The position numbers were made by a program, and so were the translations under genes. From positions 1 through 60,304 of IMG/VR virus record IMGVR_UViG_2974628900_000001: DNA of 60,304 bases; one strand, given 5' to 3'. The notes under the pieces are model-generated. The model was not told the DNA's origin, made no database searches, and was given only the letters and a program-made list of their open reading frames with translations. Position 1 is the first letter of the stretch, and each line of letters opens with the position of its first letter. The stretch comes from Streptomyces virus StarPlatinum (lineage: Duplodnaviria; Heunggongvirae; Uroviricota; Caudoviricetes). Below are positions 1,354-30,952 of this stretch, in pieces.

Positions 1354-2355
1354 TCAGGCAGCCAGGGAGTAACCCAGGACAACCTTACGGATCTTGTTCT
1401 TCTCGGTGTTGGTGACCGGGTCGAATCCGGAAGCGGCGGCGAACAGGTTGTCCACCTCACCCTTACGCGGCATACGGTACCAGTCCTTGAACTCGGTGAA
1501 GGCATTCAGCGCACCGGCCATGGTACCGGCCAGAGACTGAGTGGTCTTGGGACCGTCGCCCGTGTCAGTGAAGATGCCCATGTGAAGATCGCGCTTGTTG
1601 TCCCACTTGACCTGGGACCCCTTGACGTTCTCCTTCGGACGCTCACCGTAGATCGCAGCGAACATCTCATCGAACTTGTCCTTCGTGCACTGCACGCGGA
1701 ACAGCTCGTTCATCTCACGCTCGAACTCGTCGGCGTAAGCGAAGGTGATGTTCAGTGCCTCACGCGCGGCAGCCATGCGACCCTCGATGGTCTGAGTGTG
1801 GCGCATCTTGAAACTCTGCTTCACACCGTTACGGAGTGCGAAGTTCAGGGTGTTCTGACACACGACACGGACCGGAGTGACGCTCGCCTGCACCGCGAGA
1901 GAACCGTCATGGGAGGTGTTCACGAGCAGATACATGTTCGTGACATCGTCGTCGCCCACCAGCACCTCACGACCGATGCGCAGAGATCCGAAGACCTGCG
2001 TACCGTCCTTGATAGAACCGGCAGTCTCCCACGTTCCACCACCCGCGAGGATGCCGTCACCGAAGGCGAACAGTTCCTCATTCTGGACGACCTTATACCG
2101 CTCCGCGACGATACCAAGGCTGTCAGCCTCACCATCGAACGGGTTGGTACGGATCACCTCGAAGGCACTCTTCTTGGTGCGACCCTTACGCTCCAGCAGC
2201 TCCAGCCGAACGTTCCAGTCGGAGAGGTGGGCGAGTCGCAGCATCTCAGAGGTGGTGAGTTCCCCGTCAAAGACGGTGCCAAGCTGGTGCCACGCGGGCT
2301 CCAGACGAGAGGCGAACGCGACCTGACCACGGGAACCGATTTCGAGACCGTGCAT
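1354..2355 (-). CDS. DUF932 family phage/plasmid-like protein
   Basis: WHQLG...LSDWNV, YKVVQNEELF, AGSIKDG, NSHDGS-like NTSHDGSLA and TPVRVVCQNTL motifs. ATG 2355 follows an AGGAG RBS. Confidence 0.85.
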   Translation of the reverse strand: MHGLEIGSRGQVAFASRLEPAWHQLGTVFDGELTTSEMLRLAHLSDWNVRLELLERKGRTKKSAFEVIRTNPFDGEADSLGIVAERYKVVQNEELFAFGDGILAGGGTWETAGSIKDGTQVFGSLRIGREVLVGDDDVTNMYLLVNTSHDGSLAVQASVTPVRVVCQNTLNFALRNGVKQSFKMRHTQTIEGRMAAAREALNITFAYADEFEREMNELFRVQCTKDKFDEMFAAIYGERPKENVKGSQVKWDNKRDLHMGIFTDTGDGPKTTQSLAGTMAGALNAFTEFKDWYRMPRKGEVDNLFAAASGFDPVTNTEKNKIRKVVLGYSLAA

Positions 2356-2590
2356 TTTTGCTCCTAGTGTAGGTGTTTCTTCTAGCTTACTTGCACGGGG
2401 ACTACTTGTCAAAGTAGTCAGAGAGCACACTGTTGAGTTGATCAAGAACAGATCATCCAAGGCTTCGGGCTTTCGCCTTCCCCCTTGCTGATAGCTCAAG
2501 TCTAACAGAGTCTAGGCGGATGTGTCCACATGATTCAAGGGAGATCATTTCGCCGGGGCGGCTTGTGGCCCCCGAAGGGGCCACCGCCAA

Positions 2591-2983
2591 TTAGGGAATC
2601 ATCCCCAGAGGCTCAAACGTTCCGATAATCTCGGAATCCGTCACCGCCGCCACAGACTGGTAGGTACCGGGCCTCACCTCAGACTGAGTGTCGTAGGCGA
2701 CAACCATGTAACCCGCGTCGTCCAGGTCATAGCCGAAGTCATCGAACCACTCGGCCACCTGCTCAGGAGACGTGAGCACACAGAACTCATTGGGCATGAT
2801 ACCACCCGGCACATCGGTCCACGGCGTGGGGTGCGTCTCGTCCACGTGCTCACGGCACAGACGGTTGGAAACGGACTTCACCTGCGGGTCGAAAGAGTCG
2901 AAACCCTCTCGATACGGACCGGCCCACTTACCCGTACGGTTGCCCTCATGCGTCGGGGGAAGGGCAACACGGTAAACGATCAC
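2591..2983 (-). CDS. Hypothetical early protein
   Basis: AGGAGG RBS, own promoter, host-like codons. Confidence 0.8.
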   Translation of the reverse strand: MIVYRVALPPTHEGNRTGKWAGPYREGFDSFDPQVKSVSNRLCREHVDETHPTPWTDVPGGIMPNEFCVLTSPEQVAEWFDDFGYDLDDAGYMVVAYDTQSEVRPGTYQSVAAVTDSEIIGTFEPLGMIP

Positions 2984-3094
2984 GTTTCCTCCTAGGTTTC
3001 CCTGGTTGGTAATCCTAGTCTAACGTAGTGTCAGCAGAGATCGCAACATGACTGACCATGATCTTTTGACCGGGGCGGCCCGAAGGCCGCTCTG

Positions 3095-14000: not shown

Positions 14001-14423
14001 GTGTGACACTCTAGTTCGTCATCTCGTATGTCACTAGAGTGTCACACCTTCTGTCACGTGTCAAGGTGACATTCGTGACAGAGCAACCGTGATCGTATTG
14101 GCCGGAATGTCACGACCCTTGATGTCACTGATGATCTTTCTTAGCTCAGCTTTGTCACGAGTTCCGTCATCCCATAGCTCCTTGACCAGGCGTGACACGC
14201 TCTTTTGCTTGTCATCTGTCACGTCACGGCGTGGAATTTCTGTCATCTTTGTCACGATAGGCGTGACAGATACTTCTTCCTTGACAGCCGTGTCACCCTT
14301 TGTCATGACAGGCTTTGTCACGATTTTGTCATCTGTTTTGTCACGCTTATTTTGTGACATCTTCTTAGGTGTCACCGGCTTGTCACGCTTGCGTGACAGA
14401 CTTTCACCTGTCACGTTTGTCAC
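14001..14423. repeat. Dense TGTCAC/GTGACA hexamer array plus a 14-bp inverted repeat
   Basis: 22 exact copies counted between 14003 and 14423, in both orientations. GTGTGACACTCTAG (14001-14014) pairs with CTAGAGTGTCACAC (14034-14047). Confidence 0.95.
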
Positions 14424-14945
14424 GACTTCATTGAGCCGGAAGAACACGACGTTCTTGAATCCCTTGAATGTCTTCCCAGGGAAGATCATCCAGCTTACCT
14501 TTCCGAAGACTGGCATTCGCTTGGCGACCAGTCCGTTGGCTCGCATCTCTGAACGGTGCACAAAGCGCAGGTACAATTCGAACAATACGCCTGCGATAAC
14601 TGGAGGGGCACCGAAAAGAACTTTTCCAGGAGTCCCATAGTTAAGCAGCGCTGCGTGCTCTACGTTCAGGTATACAGAGGTTCCAACAAAGGCGTATGTG
14701 GCCAGCTTCGGAGCTAGACCACTATCTTCTGTTCGAGCGTACTTGGATGCAAGGTCAGCGACAAACAAAGCAGCACCGTCGAATGCAATACTCACTCCGA
14801 AAGCCAGTTCCTTGGGAACTCCGTAGAATTCCACAGCCATTGAATATAGGCTCCACCAACTCAAAGCGAGAGCAACGATCAGCACTGATCCGAATGAAAC
14901 TGCGCCACGCCAATCCATAAGACGCTGGAAGTCGGGCTTTTTCAT
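14061..14945 (-). CDS. DUF2637-type multi-pass membrane protein with a putative C-terminal helical DNA-binding domain
   Basis: Four hydrophobic helices with S..SL, FDG, NVEHA, APPV..G.LFE and PVFG..W..FP motifs. AAGGAG RBS before ATG 14945. Family assignment is by recognition, not HMM. Confidence 0.75.
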   Translation of the reverse strand: MKKPDFQRLMDWRGAVSFGSVLIVALALSWWSLYSMAVEFYGVPKELAFGVSIAFDGAALFVADLASKYARTEDSGLAPKLATYAFVGTSVYLNVEHAALLNYGTPGKVLFGAPPVIAGVLFELYLRFVHRSEMRANGLVAKRMPVFGKVSWMIFPGKTFKGFKNVVFFRLNEVVTNVTGESLSRKRDKPVTPKKMSQNKRDKTDDKIVTKPVMTKGDTAVKEEVSVTPIVTKMTEIPRRDVTDDKQKSVSRLVKELWDDGTRDKAELRKIISDIKGRDIPANTITVALSRMSP

Positions 14946-14960
14946 TGGTCTCCTTATAGA

Positions 14961-14992
14961 CAAAAGGCAGGGCACCCTTTTGGGTGCCCTGC
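14961..14992 (-). terminator. Intrinsic terminator after dps
   Basis: GCAGGGCACCC-AAAA-GGGTGCCCTGC followed by CTTTTG on the minus strand. Confidence 0.75.
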
Positions 14993-15003
14993 TATTCAGT
15001 TGT

Positions 15004-15405
15004 TTATCTTGATGACTCTGTAAACATCCAAAGCCACTTATCGACGCCGCGCTTAATTTCGATGAGTACATCTTGCGTAGCGAGGTCGTCGGTAATATTA
15101 AAGATAGCACCTGAGAGAACCATTGTCAAGCTCTCAAGAGAAGACTTGACTCCGTTTACTGCTTGCAGATATGAGACTGATTCGCCTGAGAATTCATAGG
15201 CGACCTTCGGTGCAAGATACATCTCTCTTGCACGCGCTCTCTCTGCGAGAGTATCGGCGTATTCTGTAATATCGTTGTGAAGTTCATCTAGCTCCTTGTG
15301 AAGATAGAAAAACTCCTTACCTCGGAGATTCCAATGGTTCTCCTTGACTGCCAAGGAGAGAGTTAGCAACCATTCCAGAATCTCTTCCAGCTTCTGCTCT
15401 AGCAC
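15004..15405 (-). CDS. dps: Dps / ferritin-like DNA-protection protein
   Basis: HWNLRG..FFYLHKELD...YADTLAER carries the Dps ferroxidase signature; AAGGAGG RBS. Confidence 0.85.
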   Translation of the reverse strand: MLEQKLEEILEWLLTLSLAVKENHWNLRGKEFFYLHKELDELHNDITEYADTLAERARAREMYLAPKVAYEFSGESVSYLQAVNGVKSSLESLTMVLSGAIFNITDDLATQDVLIEIKRGVDKWLWMFTESSR

Positions 15406-18234: not shown

Positions 18235-18316
18235 AAAAAAGACCCTCCGGAAGGCTGGGACCAATCCGGAGGGTCTAGTGAAATTGACCACGATGTTGGT
18301 CCCAGCAACATCTTGT
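18235..18316 (-). ncRNA. Candidate ~82-nt small RNA with two hairpins whose loops are complementary
   Basis: TTGACA-17-TATCTT promoter (18323-18351). Hairpin GAUGUUG-CUGGGAC-CAACAUC. Terminator GACCCUCCGGA-UUGGUCCCAGCCU-UCCGGAGGGUC-U6. Confidence 0.65.
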
Positions 18317-18437
18317 ATCAACAAGATATCACGTCCGCCAACATGTGTCAAGCTAGGGTTGATGTTGAGCAATAGCCCAACCAACTGATATAATCGTAAC
18401 ACAGCTCAAAGAGCATGTCAACGACGAAAGGACAGCA

Positions 18438-30079: not shown

Positions 30080-30952
30080 ATGGAAATTTACAGAGACACT
30101 TCCGGCGAAGCTACGCTGGAGCATCCAGTTACAGGGCCGCTAACCGCTGATATTTATCGCGGTGACGAAGTGCTTTCTACAAACCTACCAGTCACGTCAT
30201 CCAATGGTATTCACACAGTGCAAATCGATTGGCACTTTACCGAATACGATGACACATTGAAGATTGTGTGGAAGAAGACAGATTTTCAAAGAGTGACTTG
30301 GGTTGATGTAGTCACCCCAATTATTCCTCTTTCTGCTCTCGACACTCTTCTTGATGGCGTATCCACAGAAGATCAGTACGACGCGGAAAGGATCGTACGA
30401 AGGATCATTGAGGTTTACACTGGGCAGACTTTCGGCAAGTTCCGAGGAACCAAGGAAGTCACGGGTAACGACAGCACTCAGCTAGCCCTTCCAACGCCTC
30501 TCCTGTCATTTACAGATATGTCAGATGACATGTTCATCTACGAGCCTTCTGCATTTGTTATCAGAGGCGATGGCTGGTTCCTAGGCGGTAAGCCTGGAGC
30601 CTATTGGACGATCAAGGACGCACCACCAGAGGATGTTCTTGATGAATTCACCAGTGGTGTGATCTACGCCCCAGGTGTTGTGCCAAAGCGAGACTTCAAG
30701 TACACATCAGTTTACACAATCACTGGAGACTGGGGATATGAATCAGTTCCAGTCGCGGTGGTCGAGGCTGCCAAGATGCTTATTTCAGATTACGCATGCC
30801 AGGACAGCTCATACCGAGACAAGTATCTCAACTCAATGAAGGCTGCTGACTGGAGAATTGAATATACTCAGGCTGCATATGATGGAACTGGAAACCTAAA
30901 GGCAGACCAGCTTCTTAATCCATATAAGCTAAGTAACTTGGTGGTAATATGA
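30080..30952 (+). CDS. Head-to-tail adaptor, leaderless
   Basis: IIEVYTGQTF and WGYESVPVAVVEAAKML motifs; position after capsid. Confidence 0.75.
   Translation: MEIYRDTSGEATLEHPVTGPLTADIYRGDEVLSTNLPVTSSNGIHTVQIDWHFTEYDDTLKIVWKKTDFQRVTWVDVVTPIIPLSALDTLLDGVSTEDQYDAERIVRRIIEVYTGQTFGKFRGTKEVTGNDSTQLALPTPLLSFTDMSDDMFIYEPSAFVIRGDGWFLGGKPGAYWTIKDAPPEDVLDEFTSGVIYAPGVVPKRDFKYTSVYTITGDWGYESVPVAVVEAAKMLISDYACQDSSYRDKYLNSMKAADWRIEYTQAAYDGTGNLKADQLLNPYKLSNLVVI

Follow-up and report, generated by a model that had tools for sequence, protein, structure and literature searches.

The described systems closest in function to the locus reported here are the membrane protein SpdB2 and the TraB-clt pair of translocase and recognition site, both from plasmids, and the closest in layout is the replication origin that lies inside gene O of phage lambda. 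The locus is the gene of a DUF2637 membrane protein, with an array of the hexamer TGTCAC/GTGACA written through its 3' part, in Streptomyces virus StarPlatinum, whose 133,886-bp genome has direct terminal repeats of 12,199 bp and of which we analyzed the first 60.3 kb from the left end (60,304 nucleotides, record IMGVR_UViG_2974628900_000001; hereafter the window). In lambda the iterons lie in the gene of the initiator itself, and pac likewise lies inside terS in P22 and SPP1, while the early membrane protein p16.7 of Bacillus phage phi29 has a cytoplasmic DNA-binding domain and attaches phage DNA to the membrane. SpdB2 of pSVH1 is a four-helix membrane protein for which non-specific binding of double-stranded DNA and an oligomeric state have been reported (PMC4447253). 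The clt loci of pSVH1, pJV1, pIJ101 and pWTY27 are cis clusters of repeats 5-9 bp in length, placed at or within the 3' end of the gene of their reader, TraB or TraA, which is membrane-anchored and reads them through a (winged) helix-turn-helix (HTH) at its C-terminus, with words similar in type to the one found here (PMC3583192).

Exact TGTCAC/GTGACA hexamers occur 58 times in the window, 22 of them within 14003-14423 and the other 36 across the remaining ~59.9 kb. Base composition predicts 0.18 copies per 421 bp, so the initial annotation, which had counted 22 copies in both orientations and several reading frames where about 0.2 were to be expected, was reproduced on recounting. On the plus strand 16 copies read TGTCAC and 6 read GTGACA; the core is followed by G (TGTCACG) in 14 of the 22, about nine one-mismatch variants, mostly TGTCAT and TGTCAA, are interspersed, and the spacing is irregular (9-39 bp). 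Like a clt locus, the 421-bp array is thus a cluster of short repeated words. Eighteen copies lie inside the coding sequence of the DUF2637 gene (14061-14945, minus strand, 294 amino acids, ATG at 14945, stop codon 14061-14063), where they occupy nucleotides 523-880 (residues 175-294), i.e., the 3' 40% of the gene, and fall into four strand and frame classes, read as VT, [RGS]D[KTI], [LMV]S[RQP] and xVT. Projected on the protein, the array covers the last turn of a juxtamembrane helix, an entire linker and an entire C-terminal domain. The remaining four copies are found in the 60 bp beyond the stop codon. This continuation had been noticed before as running into a 14-bp inverted repeat; the continuation holds, and the repeat is in fact a perfect one of 15 nt, with arms at 14001-14015 and 14033-14047, a 17-nt spacer and one motif copy per arm, situated between the DUF2637 stop codon and the start (13990) of the next minus-strand gene.

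The array is under selection as DNA. Synonymous-codon shuffling within the gene yielded 5.4 +/- 1.8 copies (maximum 11 in 1000 trials) compared with the 18 in the coding sequence, and resampling with genome codon usage yielded 2.4 +/- 1.4 copies, with 18 never reached in 1000 trials. All seven Val-Thr dipeptides of the gene use motif-forming codons, vs 24% elsewhere in the genome, as do all six [RGSC]-Asp-x tripeptides, vs 25% elsewhere. Comparison with phage Yaboi (86% nucleotide identity) showed third-codon identity of 94% inside motifs and 77% outside, with lost sites replaced close by, for example 724 to 719. For Val-Thr at nucleotides 523/532 the window has GTGACA where Jay2Jay has TGTCAC, on the opposite strand, and one aligned position alternates between Ser, Cys, Arg and Gly among relatives because the DNA word demands NGT, which can code for all four. 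The earlier proposal that selection acts on the DNA is thereby borne out by the shuffling, by the codon choice in Val-Thr and Asp tripeptides, and by motif positions that are more conserved than their neighbors. Chance, or a by-product of a low-complexity repetitive linker peptide, would be the explanation if the DNA had no function of its own, and the linker is indeed rich in V, T, K, D and R, with short peptide repeats being able to yield repeated DNA words; however, copies stand in four strand and frame classes and past the stop codon, synonymous shuffles never attain the observed count, relatives retain the word while the peptide changes and sites relocate (724 to 719), the same residues are coded by the motif on opposite strands in different phages, and a second, non-coding array elsewhere in the genome has the same word. 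This explanation is refuted by the shuffling, frame, relocation and second-array results, and we give it practically no weight.

The protein belongs to the DUF2637 family (Pfam PF10935, residues 23-165, 30 bits vs the gathering cut-off of 22.8) and matches phrog_10376 (E-value 3e-117), a group of unknown function; its relatives are annotated as 'membrane protein' or 'DUF2637 domain-containing protein'. An AlphaFold2 model of the whole protein, built on 40 relatives, divides it into three parts. Residues 1-180 (14406-14945, minus strand; predicted local distance difference test, pLDDT, 70-86) form the membrane part, with modeled helices 6-40, 45-70, 77-100 and 105-136 and juxtamembrane helices 146-179. 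This is the best-conserved portion of the family, and only one exact motif copy starts in it, the first array site at 14418 (residues 175-176). A strict hydropathy threshold is exceeded only by the first two of the four long helices. The modeled helices and the distribution of loop charge together give the four transmembrane helices expected of an SpdB-type protein: the N-terminus and loops 66-80 and 127-180 are rich in lysine and arginine and loops 38-47 and 98-108 are poor in them, which fits a predicted topology with both termini inside and a cytoplasmic C-terminal domain. Residues 181-243 (14217-14405, minus strand) are predicted to be a disordered linker (pLDDT 31-46, no secondary structure) that is dense in motifs and that, among relatives, varies greatly in length and sequence through insertions and deletions while the motif count is kept.

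Residues 244-294 (14064-14216, minus strand) are modeled as a three-helix domain (helices 250-259, 265-276 and 282-292), a candidate HTH, whose pLDDT is ~86 within the model of the complete protein and 79 in a model of the domain by itself; its coding part itself holds six motif copies. Its best fold match is the N-terminal HTH of the phage G20c small terminase (Z 6.2, root-mean-square deviation 2.4 over 48 residues), and further matches include ArgR, the KorB DNA-binding domain, transposase HTHs, Rok, and PadR/MarR types. In the third helix T284, S290 and R291 are invariant or nearly so in 29 relatives. The model thus agrees with the four helices and DNA-binding-looking C-terminal helical domain of the initial annotation, and the latter is probably an HTH DNA-binding domain. 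Searching the AlphaFold-DB clusters with the whole model returned almost exclusively DUF2637 proteins aligned over their full length. Whole-protein Foldseek against the PDB returned nothing meaningful.

How the locus compares with the described systems can now be stated more exactly. The whole model is matched (E-value 2e-4) by one AlphaFold-DB cluster that carries the automatic name 'Protein spdB', a possible likeness to SpdB2 and SpdB; unlike these, the gene here stands outside a tra/spd operon, its neighbors being a ferritin/Dps-like gene and small genes of unknown function instead of a TraB translocase, and no site array has been described in the SpdB2 gene. With SpdB of pIJ101, which has no Pfam match, no relation was detectable (hhalign of the DUF2637 alignment, probability 0.9%), and we also set aside the published 'SpdB2-like' phage proteins gp23 and gp25 of phiC31, to which we detected no sequence relation of the DUF2637 protein. 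Compared with clt, whose reader is a hexameric FtsK-like motor, the DUF2637 gene encodes no ATPase, and the DUF2637 arrays are larger (20-35 sites), run in both orientations and are written through a coding linker. As in lambda, the cis site lies in the gene of a putative binding protein of its own, in the part for an inter-domain linker, so that site and reader are linked; however, the lambda O initiator is soluble, and its four iterons are ordered and have an AT-rich region next to them, whereas the DUF2637 protein is membrane-integral, with numerous, irregular sites and no unwinding element. The p16.7 protein of phi29 differs in having a single transmembrane helix and non-sequence-specific binding, and shares neither homology nor a dedicated site array with the DUF2637 system.

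We surveyed 16 DUF2637 family members, counted without phylogenetic correction, and found a private intragenic array in about 12 of them. StarPlatinum is a virulent cluster-BE Streptomyces phage (Boydwoodruffvirinae, Karimacvirus-like), and in all BE homologues examined (63-97% amino acid identity) the gene contains GTGACA 14-26 times. It is also almost the only place in the whole genomes of Jay2Jay, Coruscant and Tomas where the word forms close pairs. In distant homologues the post-membrane part of the gene likewise has an array, but of another word, not confined to a single frame or strand and in numbers above those of synonymous shuffles. Thus the satellite MulchRoom has ACGACA (17 copies vs a shuffle mean of 7.4), the temperate phage Kromp CGGACA (20, or 20-22, vs 5.1) and the satellite MiniFlayer TGCGAA (16 vs 3.1). 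Among plasmids, pNO33 has GGCACA (12 vs 1.9; CGGCACA, 9 vs 0.9), continuing downstream, the NBC_01353 plasmid GCGCTCA (21 vs 4.1), an S. pseudovenezuelae plasmid GAGACC (28 vs 16.1), pMDJK44.1 CGGAACG (10 vs 1.9), pFRL6 CGGCCCG (35 vs 12) and a Kitasatospora plasmid CGAACC(G) (CGAACC, 22 vs 4.8). DUF2637 genes are present on 72 Streptomyces/Kitasatospora plasmid records, in keeping with the statement in the initial annotation that such genes occur on actinomycete plasmids, and the check it had suggested on homologues came out in its favor, since intragenic arrays are present and a diverged C-terminal domain goes with a different word. The third helix of MulchRoom, MiniFlayer and Kromp differs from that of the GTGACA-type group. 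In neither satellite is the word that of its helper: ACGACA of MulchRoom is clustered nowhere in its helper MulchMansion, and the MiniFlayer gene has zero GTGACA, its helper MindFlayer being 92% identical to the window across the locus. The private words in these two satellite-helper pairs suggest a self/non-self addressing system. Both satellites share a 'predicted membrane protein' and are reported to be without primase or other replication genes (PMC10690885).

Several further observations concern these relatives. The pNO33 array has 16 further GGCACA copies over ~800 bp past the stop and into the next gene, whose function is unannotated (pNO33 2224-3010). Integrated satellite-like elements in Streptomyces chromosomes show a weaker enrichment, of (A/G)GGACA; such elements of ~13 kb, e.g., in GCA_029893855.1 (5324-18089) and in three further loci, have the layout of a MulchRoom-type satellite, with the gene order integrase, Lsr2-like, DUF2637, terminase, portal, scaffold, capsid, and a DUF2637 protein ~50% identical to the helper-phage type. 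Three metagenomic BE-like proteins (P0059, P0060 and P0062) have a divergent first half of the membrane domain, with a linker and C-terminal domain that hardly differ from those of other BE phages (P0062 compared with Coruscant, P0059 with P0054); this pattern points to recombination inside the gene that would keep array and C-terminal domain together. In pattern-based searches for the locus, viral contigs yielded close relatives only, and genome contigs had no match.

The DUF2637 gene is not the sole place with an array. Genome-wide there are 111 TGTCAC/GTGACA copies, 35 of them in two clusters, the second of which lies outside the window at genome positions 79678-79812, in non-coding DNA, with 12-13 copies in 135 bp. 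It is flanked on one side by a DUF3307 gene, and is followed by a GC-rich stretch, an AT-rich stretch and, ~70 bp downstream, a promoter-like TTGACA-17-TAAGGT. A gene for a membrane-anchored, P-loop FtsK/SpoIIIE-like protein of 603 amino acids (genome 75392-77203; PHROGs and SEA-PHAGES annotation) ends 2.5 kb upstream of it; the protein falls below the Pfam FtsK_SpoIIIE threshold and has a 77%-identical counterpart in MulchMansion. In LukeCage, which is 95% identical at the DUF2637 locus, the second array is identical. Because BE1 phages, and the phages MulchMansion, Jay2Jay, Coruscant and Tomas, have it in weak form or not at all, with the intragenic array present throughout, we take the intragenic array to be the conserved feature and the 79.7-kb array to be an addition in the BE2 lineage; across the genomes compared, the only gene that is always linked to an array is the DUF2637 gene that holds it. 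The second array includes two 12-bp palindromes, GTGACATGTCAC and TGTCACGTGACA. A likeness of TGTCACGTGACA to the actinobacterial parS palindrome and one of GACAC-containing words to the WhiA motif were dropped, since the majority of sites are half-sites standing alone and lineages that share hosts have different words. Kromp (MH744420.1) likewise has a further cluster, of nine CGGACA copies at 30228-30738 in the immunity region, which covers the divergent promoter region between the HTH gene gp37 and the annotated immunity repressor gp38 as well as the end of gp38; it suggests that the reader of the Kromp array also touches the lysis-lysogeny switch.

With moderate confidence, and on the grounds of sequence comparison and structural models, we propose that the DUF2637 protein ties the DNA to the membrane through binding of the array by its C-terminal domain. 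The modeled architecture of membrane helices, a disordered 60-residue linker and an HTH-like domain fits such a tether. The cytoplasmic HTH-like domain would recognize TGTCAC(G), of which some 30 copies lie in its own linker and C-terminal codons and in the 60 bp past the stop. A single HTH reading six or seven base pairs would bind weakly; many HTH heads on ~60-residue linkers, extending from a membrane core presumed to be oligomeric by the SpdB2 report, would bind an irregular array avidly and so hold phage DNA against the cytoplasmic membrane. Avidity achieved by many flexible heads would leave spacing and orientation unconstrained while the number of sites is kept. Site and reader would be inseparable by recombination because both are in one gene, and each lineage, whether helper phage, satellite or plasmid, could evolve a private word. 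We infer, moreover, that with co-translational membrane insertion the gene would be near the membrane when the C-terminal domain emerges, and that the intragenic sites would then be the first DNA that this domain meets.

The tether would most likely position the genome at a membrane complex. What it is used for is the least certain part of the proposal. The candidate uses are hand-over to an FtsK-like ATPase for movement between hyphal compartments, membrane-associated replication, and local transcription control, the last being suggested by the promoter-proximal inverted repeat, the second array and the Kromp immunity cluster. Movement through hyphal cross-walls, as raised in the initial annotation, is speculation, and the idea of spread between compartments has already been voiced for SpdB2-like phage proteins (PMC4447253). 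A broader proposition, which we offer tentatively and regard as possible but somewhat doubtful, is that DUF2637 proteins are a widespread, unrecognized class of membrane-integral, sequence-specific DNA anchors whose genes carry their own docking arrays in the codons for linker and DNA-binding domain, the private word being an address label by which a phage, satellite or plasmid would deliver its own DNA, and no other, to a membrane machine used in common; satellites could then plug into the apparatus of the helper through the conserved membrane domain.

Several points weigh against binding and tethering by the C-terminal domain. SpdB2, the nearest studied type of protein, is reported to bind DNA non-specifically (PMC4447253), and the similar-looking clt repeats, TGACACC in pWTY27 and CCGCACA[C/G][C/G] in pJV1, are read by TraB-type pumps (PMC3583192). 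The fold matches of the C-terminal domain are weak (Foldseek E-value > 1; highest Z 6.2), which is common for helical domains of 45 residues, and the domain has no sequence match in any Pfam or PDB family. No clear array was found in Wakanda, Circinus and one plasmid, and Wakanda has no ACGACA cluster despite a MulchRoom-like third helix. The covariation of word and third helix is confounded, each new-word lineage having a generally diverged protein, and the joint divergence of word and protein could arise from shared ancestry alone. Finally, the second clusters of the same word in this phage and in Kromp are promoter-proximal and would suit an ordinary regulator or an FtsK-like ATPase.

The choice of reader is the point on which the alternatives divide most clearly. 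It is conceivable, if unlikely in our judgment, that the arrays are clt-like sites for the phage's 603-amino-acid FtsK/TraB-like ATPase, which would be loaded there and pump phage DNA across septa, the DUF2637 gene being a mere host of the sites or its product an Spd-like accessory partner. The phage does encode a membrane-anchored P-loop ATPase in FtsK/SpoIIIE-like PHROGs with the second array 2.5 kb downstream of its gene, a Kitasatospora plasmid has its DUF2637 gene directly after an FtsK/SpoIIIE gene, and several arrays are mostly in one orientation. Published clt loci, moreover, are clusters of 7-9-bp repeats, partly in the 3' end of the tra gene, with the words resembling ours that were quoted above (PMC3583192), and SpdB2 interacts with TraB in pSVH1 (PMC4447253). 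However, a clt site is expected at or next to the 3' end of a translocase gene, and 61 kb separate the main array from the ATPase gene, with no array but the second near it. Only BE2 phages have that second array in strong form, but the intragenic one is present in every BE relative examined; the ATPase itself is below the Pfam threshold. We favor the protein's own C-terminal domain over the FtsK-like ATPase as the putative reader because Kromp, MulchRoom, pNO33 and MiniFlayer carry arrays, strong ones in Kromp and both satellites, without a detectable FtsK-like counterpart (none was detected in Kromp, MulchRoom and pNO33, and none is in the MiniFlayer gene list), and because T284, S290 and R291 of the third helix are near-invariant in the GTGACA-type group, and that helix differs in MulchRoom, MiniFlayer and Kromp. 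Given that the words of both satellites are private, a helper-encoded reader or pump should not recognize their arrays.

Replication offers another role for the array, as an origin of the lambda ori-in-O type with iterons in the linker-coding part and the DUF2637 protein organizing membrane-attached initiation. The layout recalls the iterons inside the lambda O gene, an AT-rich stretch follows the second array, and an origin would explain why satellites keep the gene: both are reported to lack replication genes (PMC10690885) yet retain the membrane protein, each with a private array. We nevertheless think this very improbable, in that the main array has no AT-rich unwinding element (GC 48.5% vs 49.5% for the genome), the protein is unlike any initiator family in Pfam and PDB sequence searches, no precedent is known for an integral membrane initiator, plasmids with their own Rep/iteron systems also have DUF2637 genes with arrays, and the second cluster of Kromp stands at immunity-region promoters and not in a replication module. 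The position of that cluster, which fills the divergent promoter region from an HTH gene to the annotated immunity repressor, would suit an operator, in which case the word would serve a regulator, either the membrane-bound DUF2637 protein in the manner of ToxR or CadC or some other small phage protein, and the copies inside the gene would act as a sink or in autoregulation, without any positioning of DNA. In StarPlatinum the last sites form an inverted repeat directly before the ribosome-binding site of the next gene, and the second array lies ~70 bp upstream of the promoter-like TTGACA-17-TAAGGT. Still, 20-35 sites over 400-1000 bp of coding DNA far exceed the needs of an operator, such arrays are seen again in plasmids, satellites and virulent phages whose regulatory circuits are unrelated, and the small genes downstream of the DUF2637 gene are not conserved between BE1 and BE2, though the array is; a purely regulatory role is for these reasons improbable.

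A full-text literature search turned up DUF2637 in two papers only, as a passing mention in each, and we found no published site arrays inside DUF2637 genes. If the proposed tethering by the C-terminal domain is true, it would be the first function for a domain that Streptomyces phages, satellites and plasmids commonly carry and whose role has so far had no name, and it would clearly exemplify dual coding, since the array of binding sites in the DNA dictates the choice of amino acids (Ser/Cys/Arg/Gly through NGT). It would also provide a testable handle on the way in which mobile DNA of Streptomyces is brought to membranes and septa in order to spread, and on what the recently described Streptomyces phage satellites, reported to be without replication genes, add to their own propagation.

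As for the genome setting, the DUF2637 gene lies 1.9 kb inside the left-repeat boundary, among minus-strand genes. The array had been called centromere-like; this label found no support, as the phage is virulent and a search of the 133.9-kb genome for ParB_N (E-value <= 0.01) brought up no ParB-type gene; ParA was not searched for. A role in a T5-style second step of DNA entry was set aside on account of the gene's position 1.9 kb inside the boundary of the 12,199-bp terminal repeat, since with a T5-style stop at that boundary the gene would not be expected to be expressed from first-step DNA.

Directly upstream is the ferritin/Dps-like gene (15004-15405, minus strand; Pfam Ferritin, E-value 1.8e-9), and its pairing with the DUF2637 gene is kept in most BE phages and missing in Angela and MulchMansion. 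After it, 22 nt upstream of the DUF2637 ATG, comes a strong terminator-like hairpin of 11 pairs followed by a T-run (14967-14992, minus strand). A near-consensus promoter, TTGACA-17-TATCTT with an extended TG, is located at 15101-15129 (minus strand) inside the 3' end of the ferritin/Dps-like gene, ~110 nt before the hairpin. Promoter and hairpin together could produce a short RNA or act as an attenuator that gates the DUF2637 gene. The same promoter hexamers had been seen in the initial annotation at 18235-18351.

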